DNA of 64,000 nucleotides, from positions 18,635-82,634 of the forward strand of contig CAIVAT010000006.1 of NCBI GenBank assembly GCA_903903985.1, written 5' to 3'. A model generated the notes under the pieces. The model did not search any database and was not told the origin of the DNA. It saw nothing but the letters and a program-made list of their open reading frames with translations. This document shows positions 41,500 to 61,133 of this stretch, in pieces. The DNA is from an uncultured Bacteroidales bacterium (GTDB taxonomy: Bacteria; Bacteroidota; Bacteroidia; Bacteroidales; FEN-979). How positions within the stretch are numbered: position 1 is the first letter of the stretch; each line of letters opens with the position of its first letter. Both the position numbers and the translations under genes were made by a program.

Positions 41500-42588
41500 T
41501 TACGGGCGGCTTAGCAGGATGAATGCATGGTTGTTTCCCATGAAATGATTGTAAATGAGCACATGTTCATAAATGGTTGATTTTGGTGAGGATTTCAGAC
41601 ACACTGCCCCGGGAACCAACTGTGTGCTGATAACCTGTGCAGCCAACCAAGCAGCAAAAGCCGATGCTGTGTGATATTCGCCGCAAAGGTGCTTGAAATA
41701 AGCCAGCGGTGTATCCGCAAAATCTTTGCCTGCCAGGAACTTGTATACCTGGTCCGTTCGCGGATTCCCATTTAACCCCATGAACACCAGGTCTATATCG
41801 TTCGTGGTCAGTCCGGCGGTTGCAAGAAAATCATGGACCCTTTTGCTGACTTCTTTTTCTGACGCGGGTTTCAGAAAGGTGGTGACCCCCATCAGCCTGG
41901 CATATGTATGTTCATTCTGATAATTTTCGAGGAAAAAAAAGGTGGCGCCTTCACCGGCGATGGTCCCACGCTGCCGATCATCGAGCAGGTTTTTAGTATC
42001 AACAGGTTTTCGTTTCCAGTAGCCCAAACGGGATGTGATGGCAAAGGAATTCACCGTGAGTTCATCGGTGCCACCCACAAGGGCATCAGACAATTCACCC
42101 ATCTCAAACTGCGTCATGGCATCGAGCAGGGCGCTTTCGAATGAAACTCCCCGGTGCACATAGGTGAAATTATAACCATGGCATTTGATCAACAGGGCGA
42201 TCTGGCCGGCAACCGTATTGTGCGTGCTCTGAATAAAGGAAGTTGGAGTGAGAAACTCTTCCTTGTTCCTGATCATGGAAGTGAGGAATTTTTCCGTATC
42301 CTCCATGCATCCCAACCCGGTACCTGTGATGATGGCCTGGGGAATGATTTCCCGTTCCATGTTTGAACCGGAACTGCTGCCCGCATCCCTGAGGCATAAT
42401 TTTGATGCGGTGACCCCCATTTTGATGATGCGGCCCATTCTCCGGATCATTTCAGCCGGGATGAATTCCTTATAACCCGGGTCGGCACACCTGAGCTGAT
42501 TGGCCTCAAAAAACAGCGGTTCTACCAGTAATGCCTTTTGTGGCGATACACTGCCGAGCCCGTTGATGTATACTGGTGTGTTGGTCAT
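41500..42588 (-). CDS. KS-like protein lacking the active-site Cys (chain-length-factor-like partner)
   Basis: Thiolase-fold pattern, but the nucleophile position reads IQSTHNTVAG. It is a paralog of 44020-45078. Confidence 0.8.
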   Translation of the reverse strand: MTNTPVYINGLGSVSPQKALLVEPLFFEANQLRCADPGYKEFIPAEMIRRMGRIIKMGVTASKLCLRDAGSSSGSNMEREIIPQAIITGTGLGCMEDTEKFLTSMIRNKEEFLTPTSFIQSTHNTVAGQIALLIKCHGYNFTYVHRGVSFESALLDAMTQFEMGELSDALVGGTDELTVNSFAITSRLGYWKRKPVDTKNLLDDRQRGTIAGEGATFFFLENYQNEHTYARLMGVTTFLKPASEKEVSKRVHDFLATAGLTTNDIDLVFMGLNGNPRTDQVYKFLAGKDFADTPLAYFKHLCGEYHTASAFAAWLAAQVISTQLVPGAVCLKSSPKSTIYEHVLIYNHFMGNNHAFILLSRP

Positions 42589-42628
42589 TGGTGTTTATTG
42601 TTTTAAAGGGGTAAAACCTTGTCCCGGG

Positions 42629-43846
42629 TCACGCGTCACCTGTTACGTAACGTGACAGGACCACGGCAGAATTATTTCCGCCAAATCCGAACGAATTGGA
42701 CAGAACGTGGCGTATCGATGCGTTATGGTTGGTTGTTACCGGCCTGTTGTGCAATTCCTTCATCGGGATCGAAAAACCCAGGTTGGAAAAAACAACCTGG
42801 TGTTTCAACGCCAGGACAGAGATCACGGCTTCAACAGCCCCGGCGGCTCCGAGTGTATGTCCGGTAAATCCTTTGGTAGAACTGTAGGGTGGCACATGTT
42901 CCCCGAAGATACGCTCGATGGCAATCCCTTCGGAGAGGTCGTTGTTTTGCGTACCGGTGCCGTGTACGTTGATGTAATCGATGTCGTTGGGCTGAAGTTT
43001 GCTCATGGCAATGGCTTTCGACATGGCCATGAAGGCCCCTGTGCCGTCGGGCGAAGAGGCCGTTTGATGGTATGCATCATTGGCATTGCCATAGCCTGAA
43101 ACTTCCGCCAGGATGTTTTTCCCATCTTTCATGACAACCTCTTCCGATTCCAGTACCAGGAAAGCTGCTCCTTCGCCCAGCGTGAGCCCGGCCCTGTTTT
43201 CGTCAAAGGGATGGCAACCGGTTTTGTCCAGGATCATCAGGGTATTGAAACCATTGAGCGTGAATCTGGTAACGGCATCGGTACCACCCACTACCACTCG
43301 GTCAAGTTGACCGGTTTTGATGAGGTTCGAGCCGAACATCAGGGCATTTACCGATGAGGAGCAGGCCGTGCTGATGGTGGTGACCAGGTCGCTGATCCCC
43401 AGGTGGCTGGCAATCCGTTCGGTGCTGTCGCCACAGTCGTGGTTCACCACATCGATGAGGCGGCCTCTGGCTGGATCGGAGAGGAATGACGCGTAGAAAT
43501 CTTCGCTCCGGTCCATGCCGCCAACGGTAGATGCAGAAATAAGACCGGTTTTATATTGATGGATATTGCTGATTCCAGCTGATCCCAGCGCTTCCTTTGC
43601 AGCCTTCATCCCCAGCAGGGCGGTACGGGTGAGATTTTTTTTGCCTGCCTTGCCAACCTCTTCAAGCAATTCTTCTGTGGTCATTTTTACTTCGGCCATG
43701 GGGATGATCCCCTTATGCATAGTGTTAAACAATGTAATTTCTCCTATTCCTGTTTTCCCGGCAAGCAGGGATTGGAATGTTTCTTCAACATTTTTCCCGA
43801 TGGCACATACAATCCCGATGCCGGTAATAAAAACCCGTTTTGACAT
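42629..43846 (-). CDS. Beta-ketoacyl-ACP synthase (FabF-like KS)
   Basis: [12 protein letters not shown] (Cys nucleophile), [11 protein letters not shown] and [14 protein letters not shown]. Confidence 0.9.
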
Positions 43847-44019
43847 GAAGCAATTCAATAATTTAAATGCAAAATTAACAGAATAAAATCAACCAGGGAA
43901 ATCCGGGACGAATTGGTGAAGCTACCCACCACAGTTCCTTTGGCGAAACGATGCACCCCCGGACCGTTCGGTGAATCTAACGATCCCTGCTTCTTGGGTA
44001 ACAATAATTTACGAACCTA

Positions 44020-45078
44020 CTAACATCCCTGTACCAGCATAAACGAATGGTTCACATCCCTGAATTGGTTATAAATCAAAATATTCCTAAGCTTTCCAGG
44101 AACGACTTGATTTAAATGTAAAACCACCGGGTAAACTGGCCTCCTCAGGATATTGGCAGCAACATACAACCCGAAACCAGTGGCCGTGTGGTACTCACCA
44201 CACAGGTGTTTGTACCATGCCTGCGCTTTCCCGGGGAAAAATTGGTTGGCAAAATGTGTATAAACCTGATCGTATTTGCAATCACCATTTACCCCAAGGA
44301 TCACCAGATCTATGTCGTTCGGTGACAGTTCATTTTTAGCAAGAAATTCCGGTAAAACCACTTCGGGCCGGAATGAACCATTCAGGTTGATGCAGGTCGC
44401 TACATCTTTCAGTTCAGCATAGGTTGACGAGCGCTTTTCGGTACCCAACACAAAAAAAGCAGCGCCTTCGCCAGGAAGCGCCCCGGGCGATTTTGTTTCA
44501 AGCAAGGCCAGGTTGTTTACGGGCTCCATCTTCCATTGCCCGATGCGGCGGGTGATCTGAAGGTGGTTCATGGTCATCTCATCGATGGCGCCAATAAGCA
44601 CATTCCTGGCCATTTCTTCCTCGATCTGCATCATCCCGTCAATCAATCCGCTCTCAAAAGAGAAAGTACGATGCACGTAGGTTGAGTTGTAGTTGTGGCA
44701 TTTCAGCTGGATGGCCACCTGAGAGCTGATGGTGTTGTAAGTCGATTGAATAAAGGGAGTCGGGTTCAGAAACCGTTCTTCGCTGGAAAGATCACCGAGG
44801 ATTTTTTCAGTATCCTCCACACTTCCCAAACCCGTCCCGGTAATGATGGCATCCGGCATGCTGCAACCTGCATCAGCCAGGCTGATTTTTGCAGAAGCAA
44901 TCCCCATTTTAATCAGGCGGCTCATGCGCCTTGACTGGATCGGGTCGATATAGGTCCTGTATGCCGGTTCAATGCACTTCAGGTAATCGGACGTATATTC
45001 CATGATCTCCGGCAGAAATTCCGTCGGGTCCACAGTCTTTTGGGGGGAAATTAAACCGATGCCGTTAATATATGCCAT
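44020..45078 (-). CDS. KS-like protein lacking the active-site Cys (chain-length-factor-like partner)
   Basis: IQSTYNTISSQ at the nucleophile position. Collinear with 41500-42588. Confidence 0.8.
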   Translation of the reverse strand: MAYINGIGLISPQKTVDPTEFLPEIMEYTSDYLKCIEPAYRTYIDPIQSRRMSRLIKMGIASAKISLADAGCSMPDAIITGTGLGSVEDTEKILGDLSSEERFLNPTPFIQSTYNTISSQVAIQLKCHNYNSTYVHRTFSFESGLIDGMMQIEEEMARNVLIGAIDEMTMNHLQITRRIGQWKMEPVNNLALLETKSPGALPGEGAAFFVLGTEKRSSTYAELKDVATCINLNGSFRPEVVLPEFLAKNELSPNDIDLVILGVNGDCKYDQVYTHFANQFFPGKAQAWYKHLCGEYHTATGFGLYVAANILRRPVYPVVLHLNQVVPGKLRNILIYNQFRDVNHSFMLVQGC

Positions 45079-45089
45079 TAACCTGATAA

Positions 45090-46304
45090 TTATAAAATGT
45101 CAGCATTGACTTTTTTGAAGATCAATGAAGTATCATTTCCCCCAAACCCGAACGAATTCGACATCACCACATTCACCGGAATATTGGTCATGAGCTTTTC
45201 AACAGGGGAGAAGCTGAGTTCTTCAATGCGCTCCTGGAAATTCAGGTTGGGCCAGGCCACCTGGTGCTGCAAACACATGATCGAAAGGATCGCTTCTGCA
45301 GAGCCTGCAGCGCTGGTGGTATGCCCGGTGAATGGTTTGGTTGAACTGACCAGGGGCATGCGGTTACCGAAGAGTTTTTCAAGAGCACGGCCCTCGGAGA
45401 GGTCGTTGTTGTCGGTACCGGTGCCATGTGCATTCACATAATCAATATCTTCGGGAGCCAATCCGCTGAGTTCAAGGGCTTTTTTCATGGCCAGGTAGGC
45501 CCCGGTGCCGTCGGGAGAGGAGGCTGTCTGATGAAAAGCCTCGCAGGCGTTACCCCAGCCCACCAGCTCGCACAAGGGTGTGTTGCCGGTTTTCCCGAGG
45601 CTTTCTCCCGATTCAAGAACCAGGTAGGCAGCGCCTTCGCCCAGGTTGATCCCGGCACGGTTCTGATCGAATGGCCTGCATGGATTTTTATCCAGGATCT
45701 TCAGGGCATTAAATCCATTGAGATGGAATTTCGTGAGTGCTTCGCAACCGCCGGCCAATACACGGTCAAGCCTGCCTGTACGGATCATGCGTGCACCGAG
45801 CATGATGGCATTGGCTGCAGATGAACAGGCCGTGCTGATGGTGGTCACAAAATCACTGATACCGAGCAGGCCGGCAATTTTTTCCGTACTGTCAGCACAG
45901 TCATAAGAATCAATGTAAGCGTTGCGGCTATCGTTGGTAAGGAAATCGCTGTAATAATTTTCGCAACGATCCATGCCACCCACGGTTGTAGCGGAGATCA
46001 GCCCGGTTTTTAATTCCCGGCAGTTATTCATACGGCCATTGACAAAAGCTTCCCGCGCGGCAATGATACCTAGCAAGGCATTTCTTGAATAGCCATCGGT
46101 GGGAGGGATGGCCGCCAGGGTAAAAAGCTCTTCCAGCGTTTTTCGAACTTCGCCGACAAGCAATTCGTTCTTAAGATAGGTGTCAACATAATGAACACGT
46201 CCTGTTCCAGGTTTTGACTGAAGCAGGGATTCAAGATGTTCCTCGATGTTGTTGCCGATGCAGGAAATGATGCCGAACCCGGTAATGAAAATCCGCTGAG
46301 GCAT
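45090..46304 (-). CDS. Beta-ketoacyl-ACP synthase (FabF-like KS)
   Basis: [23 protein letters not shown] and STKPFTGHTTSAAG. Confidence 0.9.
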   Translation of the reverse strand: MPQRIFITGFGIISCIGNNIEEHLESLLQSKPGTGRVHYVDTYLKNELLVGEVRKTLEELFTLAAIPPTDGYSRNALLGIIAAREAFVNGRMNNCRELKTGLISATTVGGMDRCENYYSDFLTNDSRNAYIDSYDCADSTEKIAGLLGISDFVTTISTACSSAANAIMLGARMIRTGRLDRVLAGGCEALTKFHLNGFNALKILDKNPCRPFDQNRAGINLGEGAAYLVLESGESLGKTGNTPLCELVGWGNACEAFHQTASSPDGTGAYLAMKKALELSGLAPEDIDYVNAHGTGTDNNDLSEGRALEKLFGNRMPLVSSTKPFTGHTTSAAGSAEAILSIMCLQHQVAWPNLNFQERIEELSFSPVEKLMTNIPVNVVMSNSFGFGGNDTSLIFKKVNADIL

Positions 46305-46310
46305 CGGGAC

Positions 46311-46565
46311 CTATTTTTTATGCTCTGTAATGTATTCTGCCATGGAACGGATGGAGAAGAAAATTTTCTTACCGTCTTTCGGATCCTCAATTTTTATTCC
46401 GTAATTCTTCTCCAGTAAAACAATCAGTTCAAGTGCATCAATCGAATCCAGCCCTAAACCTTCGCCAAACAATGCGGAATCCGGATTTATGTCATCGGGA
46501 GTAATATCTTCCAGGTTTAATTGCTCTATTACTTCTTTTTTAAGTTTTAAAATCAATTCATCCAT
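46311..46565 (-). CDS. Acyl carrier protein
   Basis: 84 aa, with the phosphopantetheine site LGLDSIDALEL. Confidence 0.9.
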   Translation of the reverse strand: MDELILKLKKEVIEQLNLEDITPDDINPDSALFGEGLGLDSIDALELIVLLEKNYGIKIEDPKDGKKIFFSIRSMAEYITEHKK

Positions 46566-46574
46566 AATATCAGA

Positions 46575-47225
46575 TCAGTTACGTTTCATTATAAAATTGA
46601 GATTTTCTGCGTTAAAAAGCATCGGTTTCATCCCGGATGCTCCGCCATTGCGGCAATGGTCTTCCTTTTCAACCATTACCATCATGGCATCGCATTTGTT
46701 TGCCAATACTTCAATCCAGCCGCATAAACAGGCTTCCACCCGTTCATTGTTAAATAACTCAGAAACATAATCATGCAATAAGCTGGCATTGAATGTTTCC
46801 GAGATCAAAAAGGCATTTTCTCCTTTGATTTTATTCCTGATGCATACCTCCCCGATGACGATGTTGGGCAGGGTATAGACAAAAACAGAAGGGCTCGGGA
46901 AATAACCTGAACGGTCCCTGATCGTTTCGTTATGGGCAAGGTCAGTATCAAGACTTGAACTTGCGTTTGACAAAACAACCCCGACCGATTCTCCCGGGTA
47001 TCCTGCTAATTTTGCATCCTTTAAAACCAGTTCAGTTGCAATGAACCCAAGCTTACTAACGGCATCCATCTTGTAAAACTTGGGATAAACAGTCTGCTCC
47101 TGTTTGAACACTGTTTTTATAAAGTCTGCAAATTTAATAATATTTTCCTGATAAAAGATGAGACGCCCGTTCACAATAACCTTGTTATCATGGAGACGAC
47201 TGTAGGAAGTGATGAAACGGTCCAT
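46575..47225 (-). CDS. Short KS-N-terminal-like partner protein of the kind seen in aryl-polyene/flexirubin clusters
   Basis: About 216 aa and no Cys nucleophile motif. It starts 1 nt after the stop of the upstream KS. The assignment rests on context and weak thiolase-like patterns. Confidence 0.5.
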   Translation of the reverse strand: MDRFITSYSRLHDNKVIVNGRLIFYQENIIKFADFIKTVFKQEQTVYPKFYKMDAVSKLGFIATELVLKDAKLAGYPGESVGVVLSNASSSLDTDLAHNETIRDRSGYFPSPSVFVYTLPNIVIGEVCIRNKIKGENAFLISETFNASLLHDYVSELFNNERVEACLCGWIEVLANKCDAMMVMVEKEDHCRNGGASGMKPMLFNAENLNFIMKRN

Positions 47226-47226
47226 T

Positions 47227-48399
47227 TTAATCTTTCTGATAAATGATGGCGGCATTGCACCCGCCAAAGCCGGATGCAGTTTTCAAACAGGAAGTTAATT
47301 CCGCAGGCCGGTTGCTTGTAACAATATCCAGTGGTTCTGGAACTCCCGGAGTTTTAAAACCGGCAGATTTGTAGAGGATGTTATTCCTGAGAGAGGATAT
47401 TGCAGCAATTGATTCTACAATACCGGCTGCACCAAGCGTATGGCCCCAGTATCCTTTGAAACTGTTGACCGGGACCTCAGCCAATCCGCTCAGCCCGATG
47501 GCTTTTGATTCCATTTCGTCGTTGAACAGTGTTGCTGTTCCATGAGCCGAGATGTAACCGAGTTCCTTTGGTGTCAGCAAAGCCTGTTTCATGGCCTGGT
47601 TAATTGCCCAACTCAGTTCTTCCCCTGTGCGGGATGGCCCTGAAATATGATTGGCATCATTGCTGGTTGCAGCGCCTGCGACCCTGATCATTTGAGCAGC
47701 GGATGGGCCTGGCTCCGTTGAAAGTACCATGGTCCCGCACCCTTCACCGAGTGAAAGCCCGGTGCGGTTCAGGTCAAAAGGTTTGCAAGGTGCGGGGCTG
47801 ATTGCCTGGAAGGATTGGAACCCGGAGATGACGAATTCCGAGACAATGTCACCACCGGTCACCACGGCCTGGTCGTATGCTCCCGATTGCAGGAACCTGG
47901 TTGCAGTCATCACGGCCACCAACCCTGAAATACAGGCGTTGGAGATAATAACAGGTGTATTGGCGAATCCGAAGAAATGCTGAATAACCCTTCCCAATTC
48001 CCAGAGGTAAAGGCGTTTGTGACTGAATATTGCTTTGTACCGGTTTTCCAGTAAATTGATGTTGCCCTTGGTCGTGGAGATCACCAACAGGGTTCTATGA
48101 TTTCCCGGCATGATCGTACTGTTCCGGAGTACATCATTGATGGAAACGATAAAAAATTTTTCGAGACGCGTGAAGGATTCCGGAGAGATGTTCTTATTGA
48201 GGGCAGCAAGGATATCAGAAACTTTTTGATCCAGTTGAGCGGTATCAACCTGCGAAAGCGAAACCGGATTCGGATATAGAACTGGATCGTTCATAGTACG
48301 GATCCCGATGGCACCACCTGCGATGGCGGCAATATTTTCCGCTGTTGAAAATCCAAGCGAGGTGATGAAATTATCATTCAGGATGTAAACCGGTTTCAT
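47227..48399 (-). CDS. Beta-ketoacyl-ACP synthase
   Basis: ISNACISGLVAV (Cys), SAHGTATLFND and [12 protein letters not shown]. The start ATG 48399 (MKPVYIL) is preferred. Confidence 0.85.
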   Translation of the reverse strand: MKPVYILNDNFITSLGFSTAENIAAIAGGAIGIRTMNDPVLYPNPVSLSQVDTAQLDQKVSDILAALNKNISPESFTRLEKFFIVSINDVLRNSTIMPGNHRTLLVISTTKGNINLLENRYKAIFSHKRLYLWELGRVIQHFFGFANTPVIISNACISGLVAVMTATRFLQSGAYDQAVVTGGDIVSEFVISGFQSFQAISPAPCKPFDLNRTGLSLGEGCGTMVLSTEPGPSAAQMIRVAGAATSNDANHISGPSRTGEELSWAINQAMKQALLTPKELGYISAHGTATLFNDEMESKAIGLSGLAEVPVNSFKGYWGHTLGAAGIVESIAAISSLRNNILYKSAGFKTPGVPEPLDIVTSNRPAELTSCLKTASGFGGCNAAIIYQKD

Positions 48400-48472
48400 G
48401 CGATCAACCATTAGCTGCATTTTGAATCTGGCCTTTTACTTTTGCATTTTGCATTTTACCAATTTTACTCTT

Positions 48473-56873: not shown

Positions 56874-57131
56874 TTAATTTGGGTTGATGCGGTTGATGAT
56901 GTAACTGTAAAAATCCTGCAGCGATTTGACGTCTGCCATCTCCTCTGCCTTCATCTTGAAGCCAAAATTGTTTTCAACGATCACAAACAAATCAACAAAG
57001 TCAAGGCTGTCGATCCCGAGATCATTCTTCAGGTCGGCAGAGGGGTTTATCTGGGTTTCCTCAATTTCAATCTCATCGATCAGCAGTTGGTTTATTTTCC
57101 TGATGATCTCATCATTTTGCATCATAGTCAT
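56874..57131 (-). CDS. Acyl carrier protein
   Basis: 85 aa, with LGIDSLDFVDL. Confidence 0.9.
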   Translation of the reverse strand: MTMMQNDEIIRKINQLLIDEIEIEETQINPSADLKNDLGIDSLDFVDLFVIVENNFGFKMKAEEMADVKSLQDFYSYIINRINPN

Positions 57132-57399: not shown

Positions 57400-58620
57400 T
57401 TATCTGGATTTCCGGATAATCAGTGAAGAGTTAGTGCCGCCAAAACCAAACGAATTGGAAAGGAATGCATTGATTTCGAAGGGAGTAGTTTTTGTGGCGA
57501 TATTTAATTTTGCCGTCACCTCATCGGGATGGTCTAAATTGATGTTTGGAGCGACAAACCCGTTATTCATCATAAGGGTCGAATAGATCACCTCACTGGC
57601 CCCACCCATCCACATTTCGTGCCCGGTCATCGATTTTGTGCTGCTGACAAGGGGTCTTGAACTTCCAAAGACCGTGTTGATCGATTTTGCTTCGTTGCTG
57701 TCGCCTGCCGGTGTTGATGTGGCGTGGGCATTGATATAATCGATTTCAGATGATTTGATCCCCGCATCTTGGATTGCTTTCTGCATGGCGCGCACAGGGC
57801 CTTCCACGTTTGGCATGGAAATATGTTCCCCGTTCGATGAGAAACCGTATCCGATCACTTCGCCATATATCGTGGCGCCGCGTTTCATGGCCGATTCATA
57901 GCTTTCGATGATCACCGTGGCAGCGCCTCCGCTGGGAACCAATCCATCGCGGTCGCGGTCGAACGGACGGGATGCCCTGGTTGGCTCTGATTCCCTGATT
58001 GAAAAAGCATTGAGGGCATCAAAACTGGCTGTTGATTCGGGGTTGATCTCCTGGGCACCCCCGCAAATGATCATCTCCTGTAAACCTTGTTTGATTAAAA
58101 GATAACCGATGCCAATGGCATGTGAACCGCTGGCACGGGCCCCGCTGAGGGTGAAGTTGACCCCCTTGAGCCGGAAGATAACGGAGAGGTTCATGGAAAC
58201 AGTCGAATTCATCGATTGAAAGATGTATCCCGATCCGATCATCATGGTATCTTTCTTCTGCCGCAGGATGTCAACAGATTCCACCACCGGTAAAGCGGAA
58301 CTGTCATTGCCGAAAAGGATGCCGACCTCATGCGCATCCAGGTAGGATTGCTCAATGCCGGCATGTTTGAGTGCTTCCAGGGTCGAAATGTAAGCATATT
58401 CACCCTGTTCAGGCAAACCGATCCTCATCCTTCGATCAAGTACTCCCTTCAATTGCGGTCGTGAAACCATACCGGTCAAGGCAGAACGGAATCCCATCTC
58501 TTTTCGCACAGGATCAAAAATAATCCCCGACTTCCCCTGCATCAGCGAATCTTTGACCTCGGAGAGGTTCTGTCCGATTACGGAATAAATACCCATGCCT
58601 GTGATGACAACCCTGCTCAT
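57400..58620 (-). CDS. FabB/FabF-like beta-ketoacyl synthase with Arg at the nucleophile position
   Basis: MSRVVITGMG start. NAHATSTPAGD and STKSMTGHEMW (both catalytic His) are present, but the Cys position reads LSGARASGSHAIG (codon CGT at 58135-58137). Confidence 0.85.
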   Translation of the reverse strand: MSRVVITGMGIYSVIGQNLSEVKDSLMQGKSGIIFDPVRKEMGFRSALTGMVSRPQLKGVLDRRMRIGLPEQGEYAYISTLEALKHAGIEQSYLDAHEVGILFGNDSSALPVVESVDILRQKKDTMMIGSGYIFQSMNSTVSMNLSVIFRLKGVNFTLSGARASGSHAIGIGYLLIKQGLQEMIICGGAQEINPESTASFDALNAFSIRESEPTRASRPFDRDRDGLVPSGGAATVIIESYESAMKRGATIYGEVIGYGFSSNGEHISMPNVEGPVRAMQKAIQDAGIKSSEIDYINAHATSTPAGDSNEAKSINTVFGSSRPLVSSTKSMTGHEMWMGGASEVIYSTLMMNNGFVAPNINLDHPDEVTAKLNIATKTTPFEINAFLSNSFGFGGTNSSLIIRKSR

Positions 58621-58724
58621 ACTAATTGGCGAAATAGTGAAAAAGTGAAATAAGGTAGTGAGATAGCGAGGAGGTGTGGGAACGAGGTGGTGAAATTCAT
58701 AAATCAAAAATCGTTTATCGTAAA

Positions 58725-59453
58725 TTAAGTATAGAGTCCTCCATTCACATTCACGACCGTTCCTGTGATGTACGATGCTTCCTCCGAAGCAAGGAAACCA
58801 ACGATTGCTGCAACCTCTTCGGGTTTACCGAACCGTCCCATCGGGATCATGGCTTTCAGTTGTGCTTCATCAAGATCTTTGGTCATGTCCGTTTTGATAA
58901 AACCCGGTGCAACGGCGTTGACCGTCACATTTTTCTTGGCAACCTCCTGCGCGAGCGCTTTTGTTGCACCGATCACACCCGCTTTGGCAGCCGAATAGTT
59001 GGCCTGCCCAGGCAATCCCTTCAGTCCGGAAAGAGAAACCACATTGATGATCCTTCCCTTTTTATTGATGATCATCTCCTTGATCAGAAATCGGGTAACA
59101 TACAGGAAACTATGGAGGTTCGTATTCAGGACGTCGTGCCACTCTTCATTTTTCATCCACATCACCAGGGCGTCCTTCCTGATGCCGGCATTATTCACAA
59201 GTGCCTGGATATAAGCTCCTTCATGGGCGGTTAACCATTTTCCGAGCACATTTTCCACTTCCTCCTGGGAGGAAACATCGAAATTGAGGATCTCTCCGTC
59301 ACTGCCTTTCTCCCTGACCAGTTGCAAAGTGATTTCAGCTTCCTCCGGGCTTGCATGAAAGTTGACCAGGACGAAAAAACCCATCTCTGCAAGTTTGATG
59401 CAAACGGCCCTGCCAATGCCGCGGGAGCCACCGGTGACTAATGCGTATTTCAT
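58725..59453 (-). CDS. fabG: 3-oxoacyl-ACP reductase (FabG-type SDR)
   Basis: TGGSRGIGRA, NNAG and the YSAAK catalytic motif. Confidence 0.9.
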   Translation of the reverse strand: MKYALVTGGSRGIGRAVCIKLAEMGFFVLVNFHASPEEAEITLQLVREKGSDGEILNFDVSSQEEVENVLGKWLTAHEGAYIQALVNNAGIRKDALVMWMKNEEWHDVLNTNLHSFLYVTRFLIKEMIINKKGRIINVVSLSGLKGLPGQANYSAAKAGVIGATKALAQEVAKKNVTVNAVAPGFIKTDMTKDLDEAQLKAMIPMGRFGKPEEVAAIVGFLASEEASYITGTVVNVNGGLYT

Positions 59454-59582: not shown

Positions 59583-61133
59583 TTATCCTTCCAGCGGAAA
59601 CTTTGGTTTATTTTCCAGGATATAGTTGGCAATCTGCTTGATTTCCTTGTATTTGGTTGTGTCGTCGGTAAATTTCGGCACGATTTTCCGCAGGTCTTCA
59701 AATTTTTTGCGGGAATAACCCGAAAGTTTTGGTTTGAACTTCATGAAATCGATGGCCTGGAGAACGGCGATCATGTGAATTGACAACACGATGTAGGTAT
59801 GGTCAATCACGCGTTTGGTCATCATGGCTGCGTTGGTGCCCATGCTGACGATGTCCTGGTTATCGTTGTTATTGGTGATGCTGTGGATGGACATCGGAAA
59901 ACAAAGGGTCTGATTTTCAGCCACCGTGGATACCGCTGTAAACTGCATTCCCTGCATGCCAAGGTTGAAACCGAGTTTTCCTAGGTTGACAAACGGGGGA
60001 AGTTTTTGGTTTAATTTGTCGTTCATGAGGTAATTGAGCTGGCGTTCGGCAAGCATTGAAAGTTTCGTGACGGCAATCTTCAGTTTATCCATTTCCAGGG
60101 CGACATAATCGCCATGAAAATTTCCTCCATGAAATACGTTTTTTGCATCGCTGTCGATGATCGGGTTATCGTTGGTGGAATTGACCTCGTTGATCAGCAC
60201 CTTTTCAGCATACAAAATGGTGTCGAGGATCGGGCCCAGTACCTGCGGAACGCAACGCAGCGAGTAGTATTCCTGTACCTTATGGGTGAATACCTCCACC
60301 TGTTCTGTTTTTCCGTTGTACAGATGATCGGCCCGGCGGCGGATAAGCTGGCTGTCCTGGAGTATTGATCGCATCATCCTTGCCACCTGGTTCTGCCCGT
60401 AATGGCTTTTTACCTTGTTCAGTCCATCGGAAAAATGATCGTCATAGGACTCTACGATCTCGTTGATCATCGAAGATGCCAGTACAGCCCAGTCGAGCAG
60501 GTTCTTTGCGTGAACGAGGTTGATCATGCCGATGCCGGTCATGGCCGAAGTGCCATTGATCAGGGCAAGCCCTTCGCGGATGTGCATTTTCACCGGGGTA
60601 AGTTTTTCTTTCTGAAAAACCTTTTCGGTTGGCTGCAGCTCGCCATTGTACCAGATTTCGCCTTCGCCGATGAGGTTCAGTGCCAGGTGTGCCAGTTGGA
60701 CCAGGTCGCCGCTGGCGCCAACGCCGCCATGTTCGGGAATATGCGGATTGATGTTCCGGTTGATCAGCTCTTTGAGCAATTCAACCACCTCAATATGAAT
60801 TCCTGATTTAGCCTGCATAAAGGTATTGAGCCTTGCAAGCATGGTCGCTTTGGCGTATATCTGGGCCAGGGGCGTTCCGCATCCGGAACTGTGGCTGCGG
60901 ATCAGGTTGTACTGGAGTTGAAGTTCGTTGCTGCCGGTTATCTTATATTGTGCCATCGGCCCGAGGCCGGTGTTGATTCCATAAATGACTTTTCCCTTGG
61001 CAAATTCCTTAAGGAACTGATAATTTGCCTTTACTTTTACTACTGCTTTCGGATCCAGTTCGATCTTTTCATCCAGAAAAAGAATCTTGTAAAAATCGTC
61101 GGGAGTAAGTTTCTGTATTCCTACGCTTATCAT
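59583..61133 (-). CDS. HAL/PAL/TAL-family aromatic amino acid ammonia-lyase, probably tyrosine ammonia-lyase (flexirubin FlxA type)
   Basis: MIO-forming GASGDL. YGINTGLGPMAQY and LQYNLIRSHSSG blocks, as I recall them from Flavobacterium TAL. It is the first gene of the cluster. Confidence 0.85.
   Translation of the reverse strand: MISVGIQKLTPDDFYKILFLDEKIELDPKAVVKVKANYQFLKEFAKGKVIYGINTGLGPMAQYKITGSNELQLQYNLIRSHSSGCGTPLAQIYAKATMLARLNTFMQAKSGIHIEVVELLKELINRNINPHIPEHGGVGASGDLVQLAHLALNLIGEGEIWYNGELQPTEKVFQKEKLTPVKMHIREGLALINGTSAMTGIGMINLVHAKNLLDWAVLASSMINEIVESYDDHFSDGLNKVKSHYGQNQVARMMRSILQDSQLIRRRADHLYNGKTEQVEVFTHKVQEYYSLRCVPQVLGPILDTILYAEKVLINEVNSTNDNPIIDSDAKNVFHGGNFHGDYVALEMDKLKIAVTKLSMLAERQLNYLMNDKLNQKLPPFVNLGKLGFNLGMQGMQFTAVSTVAENQTLCFPMSIHSITNNNDNQDIVSMGTNAAMMTKRVIDHTYIVLSIHMIAVLQAIDFMKFKPKLSGYSRKKFEDLRKIVPKFTDDTTKYKEIKQIANYILENKPKFPLEG

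Follow-up and report, generated by a model that had tools for sequence, protein, structure and literature searches.

An arginine codon at the nucleophile position of a flexirubin flxC ketosynthase gene is private to one metagenome assembly

The flxC gene and the flexirubin cluster around it

The window (by which we mean the whole 64,000-base stretch of DNA analysed here, from an uncultured Bacteroidota bacterium) carries a flexirubin cluster whose starter end is arranged as follows:

59583..61133, minus strand: flxA, tyrosine ammonia-lyase (TAL; NF053541 FlxA_rubin_TAL, 830 bits, over the cut-off)
58725..59453, minus strand: flxB, SDR ketoreductase (NF053542 FlxB_rubin_SDR, 393 bits, over the cut-off)
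57400..58620, minus strand: flxC-type FabB-like ketosynthase (KS), 406 aa from the ATG at 58620 (PF00109 and PF02801)
56874..57131, minus strand: acyl carrier protein (ACP), downstream of flxC (PF00550)

The KS gene lies directly downstream of the flxA TAL and flxB SDR genes, which is the gene order that marks flxC in flexirubin/dialkylresorcinol clusters, and its neighbors are flxB and the ACP gene, with no KS partner gene adjacent to it. An earlier note on this DNA had taken the region for the TAL/FabG/ACP end of a polyene cluster, and that description holds, since it corresponds to the flxA-flxB-flxC arrangement of flexirubin clusters. Further downstream of flxC are genes for an LpxL-like acyltransferase, a B12/radical-SAM protein, a hotdog dehydratase, two DarG-DarH pairs, an ABC exporter, a deacetylase and a LolA-like protein, as well as the following KS genes and their partners:

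47227-48420, minus strand: KS with Cys-His-His
46575-47267, minus strand: Cys-less partner after KS 47227-48420, Thr at the Cys column
45090-46304, minus strand: KS with Cys-His-His
44020-45078, minus strand: Cys-less partner after KS 45090-46304, Thr at the Cys column
42629-43858, minus strand: KS with Cys-His-His
41500-42588, minus strand: Cys-less partner after KS 42629-43858, Gly at the Cys column

The first His is absent from the two longer Cys-less partners, and we assign these three KS genes with their partners (41500-48420) as the putative elongation KS/CLF-like pairs of the same flexirubin cluster. With three such Cys-less proteins (Thr, Thr and Gly) encoded in it, the cluster already has dedicated CLF-like subunits.

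The stop-to-stop open reading frame of flxC spans 57400-58707 on the minus strand. Public annotation pipelines are split over its start, some calling 435 aa from a TTG at 58707, which lies 18 nt past the flxB stop, and others 406 aa from the ATG at 58620. The ATG, from which the product opens MSRVVITGMG, is probably the correct start and is favored by the lengths of the orthologues (405-407 aa). The product contains both ketoacyl-synthase domains, PF00109 and PF02801 (E 5e-31 and 1e-30, respectively), and its best NCBIfam match is FabB PRK07967 at 391 bits, which is under the equivalog cut-off of 630 bits. In phmmer searches it matches the solved FabB structures 4xox, 3oyt and 1fj4 over its full length at about 48% identity (E 1e-92 to 1e-94), and it also matches the Acinetobacter baumannii ApeR structure (AbApeR, 7F27) over its full length (E 3.7e-70). 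Judged from these matches and from synteny, the gene belongs to the FabB/FabF-type KS fold and is the flxC orthologue of the cluster. Its product is a stand-alone FabB-like KS that corresponds to the ApeR of aryl-polyene clusters, and it is encoded at the end of the flexirubin cluster that deals with the tyrosine-derived starter.

The active site and its counterparts in other genomes and assemblies

The catalytic positions of the flxC product are encoded as follows:

58135..58137, minus strand: codon CGT, Arg162, at the nucleophile position (TGT, Cys, in all other assemblies)
58137 (C6:76771): the differing base; G on the plus strand here and A elsewhere (coding strand C versus T)
57724..57726, minus strand: His299 codon, first catalytic His (NAHATSTPAGD), intact
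57634..57636, minus strand: Lys329 codon (STKSMTGHEMW), intact
57619..57621, minus strand: His334 codon, second catalytic His (STKSMTGHEMW), intact

The plus strand reads ACG at 58135-58137, which gives CGT (Arg) on the coding strand, and the translation around Arg162 is ...VNFTLSGARASGSHAIG... In the phmmer alignments to 4xox and 3oyt, Arg162 is aligned with FabB Cys163, the Cys in SSACATSAH, and His299, Lys329 and His334 fall in their family columns. The earlier note had reported an Arg where the FabB/F nucleophilic Cys is expected, a codon one transition away from TGT, and intact catalytic His motifs and Lys; codon, translation and structure-based alignment agree with the first of these, the TGT of the other assemblies with the second, and the presence of His299, Lys329 and His334 with the third. 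The window's flxC thus has the two-domain fold and the His, His and Lys residues of elongating Cys-His-His ketosynthases, and has Arg162 in place of their nucleophilic Cys.

Is the arginine shared by related ketosynthases? The same note had proposed checking the residue in orthologues, and when this was done Cys proved to be uniform, the outcome that the note had named as refuting its more interesting readings. Among the best 120 protein matches, one is the window's own translation and the other 119 homologues (80-91% identity) all carry Cys. Likewise, TGT or TGC stands at this codon in all 26 orthologues (65-92% identity, none with an internal stop) from 25 related genomes, of which 23 belong to the same genus, so that Arg occupies the nucleophile position in 0 of 145 orthologues and homologues. 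The remaining assemblies of this clone also all read Cys (below).

The wider family was sampled by 59 representatives, defined as the single-domain proteins of 340-700 aa among the best 150 matches in a 50%-identity library of 1.84 billion proteins. Cys is present in 58 of them and Arg in one, P0216, and there is no Arg-type ketosynthase clade among the 59. P0216 is a 410-aa JGI metagenome protein from a 2,210-bp contig; it is FabF-like and unrelated to flxC, its nucleophile region reads TVAARVSSS, and its His-His-Lys residues are intact. Of the 119 relatives listed for it, 118 have Cys and one has Gly, so its Arg is a singleton within a Cys family. Its occurrence indicates that isolated Cys-to-Arg cases turn up sporadically, at a low background rate, in public metagenome data. 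In the literature that we searched, no KS with an Arg nucleophile and intact His-His was found.

The population from which the window derives is extremely clonal in public data, with at least six separate assemblies 100% identical to the window over tens of kilobases (JGI 3300022555, Logan SRR5754711, ERR4194907, ENA ERZ27313068, ERZ27245625, ERZ18624653 and others). Three independent contigs from such assemblies cover the flxC nucleophile codon:

L001, ENA ERZ27313068: 8,140 bp compared; one difference, at window 58137, where it reads T
L045, ENA ERZ27245625, part of a 160,661-bp contig: 21,308 bp compared; one difference, at window 58137, where it reads T
L046, Logan SRR5754711: 13,957 bp compared; one difference, at window 58137, where it reads T

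Each of these contigs is identical to the window's contig except at 58137, where T gives TGT and Cys. The exact Cys protein is found on two further records, which places it on at least five contigs, and a cluster representative (P0002) is the window protein except for R162C. By contrast, the Arg protein is found only on the window's own 92,542-bp contig, C6. That contig carries CGT in the window's own genome, and the Arg form is on public record (NCBI and ENA) only as a 435-aa call from the TTG start, on a contig of exactly that length, whereas the 406-aa Arg form gave no exact match in the collection; the deposited MAG therefore truly reads CGT, and the base is not peculiar to the window copy.

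Contigs from other assemblies (JGI 3300022555, Logan SRR5754711, Logan ERR4194907 and a number of ENA assemblies, all compared as assembled consensus) overlap 63,620 of the window's 64,000 bases, and the window stands alone at position 58137 only. Over about 75 kb (C6:12544-87341) there are three single-base differences in total, namely window 58137, one private to L013, and one that separates L016 from C6; over this span the window assembly lacks indels relative to the other assemblies and departs from them at no more than one further base. Arg162 is private to one assembly and is not a property of the strain. As a separate observation on these assemblies, JGI contig Ga0212088_10000757 (73,185 bp) ends, as judged from locus ranges, at about window 57036, inside the ACP gene (56874-57131) and a little short of the 268-nt spacer that precedes that gene, and several short assemblies also break near the flexirubin cluster.

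Origin and consequence of the arginine codon

The above comparisons place the arginine on a single contig, so what produced it there? The reading we favor, with a probability of roughly 0.6, is that this is an ordinary flxC ketosynthase gene in which a very recent and private T-to-C transition has changed TGT to CGT in one MAG. A T-to-C transition would have arisen in the sampled population and converted the codon of the nucleophilic Cys. Because the Arg-bearing gene and the approximately 75 kb around it have no other fixed difference, the change would be younger than any other fixed difference, and such youth would have left no time for an adapted Arg-type function to evolve.

Cys-His-His ketosynthases work by a ping-pong mechanism, and from this established mechanism we infer that condensation is lost if the base is real: loss of the thiol that carries the growing chain would mean that no acyl-thioester intermediate forms and, hence, that no Claisen condensation follows. 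A pigment gene would then have a loss-of-function allele that segregates within a population clonal in other respects. Strains that spontaneously became flexirubin-negative have been described (PMC3992019, citing McBride 2009). In the ApeR system, delta-apeR E. coli stays pigmented, and in vitro the full polyene can be made by ApeO-ApeC alone (PMC8253772, PMC8358021). By analogy, a dead FlxC/ApeR-type KS may be tolerated, and its effect on pigment may be partial, given the three intact KS/partner pairs that remain in the cluster. Counting against this reading, the flexirubin cluster shows no second lesion indicative of decay.

The principal competing explanation is a consensus or base-call error in one MAG, in which case the organism has TGT and its FlxC is a normal active ketosynthase; we consider this a serious contender, with about one chance in three of being correct. 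It is consistent with the T that every other same-clone assembly has at window 58137 (three DNA contigs and two protein records), with the confinement of the Arg form to a single contig, with the draft state of the source genome (MAG G000: 195 contigs, 87% complete, 3.8% contamination), and with the sporadic singleton replacements of the nucleophilic Cys in other public metagenome proteins, of which P0216 is an example. The base is seen in the assembled consensus alone, and it may be absent from the cells, which weighs against a real mutation. On the other hand, the consensus error rate of this assembly looks very low (in about 75 kb, no indels and not more than one further difference), and an error that strikes a catalytic codon at random is just as unlikely as a mutation that does so.

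We favor a real mutation modestly over such an error for three reasons. Measured against the others, this assembly has no flaws elsewhere; the populations do differ from each other by single bases at about the required rate, real differences being present at one each in L013 and L016; and a hit on a catalytic codon is more easily explained by selection for, or tolerance of, loss of the pathway than by chance. The probability that one random change in about 64,000 bases strikes the nucleophile codon is approximately 4e-5, and that it strikes any conspicuous catalytic residue is perhaps 1e-2. These low odds of a chance strike on the nucleophile codon fit selection for pathway loss and prove nothing.

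The earlier note had offered four readings, of which the recent inactivating mutation and the base-call error survive, and the novel priming decarboxylase and the non-catalytic partner are unsupported because the orthologues and the same-clone copies all have Cys. An evolved Arg-type KS maintained by selection, whether as a priming malonyl-ACP decarboxylase (KSQ/CLF-like) or as a non-catalytic partner subunit, might draw on the intact malonyl-decarboxylation residues His299, Lys329 and His334 and on the established decarboxylase activity of Cys-to-Gln/Ala ketosynthases, but it is highly improbable in view of the 0 of 145 orthologues and homologues with Arg, the lack of any other substitution between the Arg-bearing gene and its Cys-bearing copies, the position of the gene between flxB and the ACP gene with no adjacent KS partner, the three dedicated Cys-less partners already in the cluster, and the lack of both an Arg clade among the 59 family representatives and an Arg-nucleophile KS in the literature searched. 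We regard as equally far-fetched the idea that a real R162 protein is not simply dead and instead has kept or altered malonyl-ACP decarboxylation, is dominant-negative, or acts as an ACP-sequestering subunit; if true, it would provide a natural example of a Cys-to-Arg ketosynthase that influences pigment synthesis through regulation or priming.

For enzymology little is at stake: there is no Arg-type KS class here, and what we see is an ordinary flexirubin flxC with a lesion, or an error, of one base. The finding has a modest use as a quality flag on a public MAG, and it serves as an example of how a private change can be told from an evolved active-site variant by means of near-identical assemblies and orthologues. 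A real recent mutation would amount to a naturally occurring knock-out of an ApeR/FlxC-type KS in a clonal and widely sampled population, and it could reveal whether this type of KS is dispensable for pigment production.

Relationship to known ketosynthases

KSQ loading domains and chain-length factors (CLFs) have Gln instead of the nucleophilic Cys, a replacement that their orthologues share, and CLFs form pairs with a KS encoded next to them. The window's FlxC resembles them in being a thiolase-fold KS-like protein without a nucleophilic Cys, but its residue is Arg and not Gln or another family-typical residue, the replacement is private to one assembly and not conserved, and gene order places no KS next to it. 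On these grounds we conclude that it is not a KSQ/CLF-type protein. With E. coli FabB (KAS I; Cys163-His298-His333, Lys328) it shares about 48% identity over its full length and His, His and Lys residues in register, and it differs from this enzyme in the Arg at the nucleophile position, its location in a pigment cluster, and its score of 391 bits versus the 630 bits of the FabB equivalog cut-off.

The closest parallel in gene organization is the flexirubin cluster of Chitinophaga pinensis, flxA-flxY, for which five ketosynthases are postulated, FlxC among them (Schoner et al. 2014, PMC3992019). The C. pinensis flxC has the same place in the flxA (TAL)-flxB (reductase)-flxC (KS) order (PMC3992019), and the likeness of the two clusters extends to FlxA and FlxB proteins over the NCBIfam cut-offs and to downstream DarG/DarH, ABC exporter, LolA-like and deacetylase genes. 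The difference from C. pinensis FlxC, whose role is only postulated (PMC3992019), is the Arg that the window copy has at the nucleophilic Cys. ApeR of A. baumannii (7F27), a FabB-like homodimeric KS of aryl-polyene (APE) clusters with Cys164 as its nucleophile (PMC8358021), is likewise a stand-alone FabB-like KS beside KS/CLF-type pairs. By sequence the window's FlxC matches housekeeping FabB (E 1e-92 to 1e-94) more closely than it does ApeR (E 3.7e-70), and the starters of the two pathways differ, being tyrosine-derived 4-coumarate for flexirubin and 4-hydroxybenzoate for the aryl polyenes of the ApeR system.
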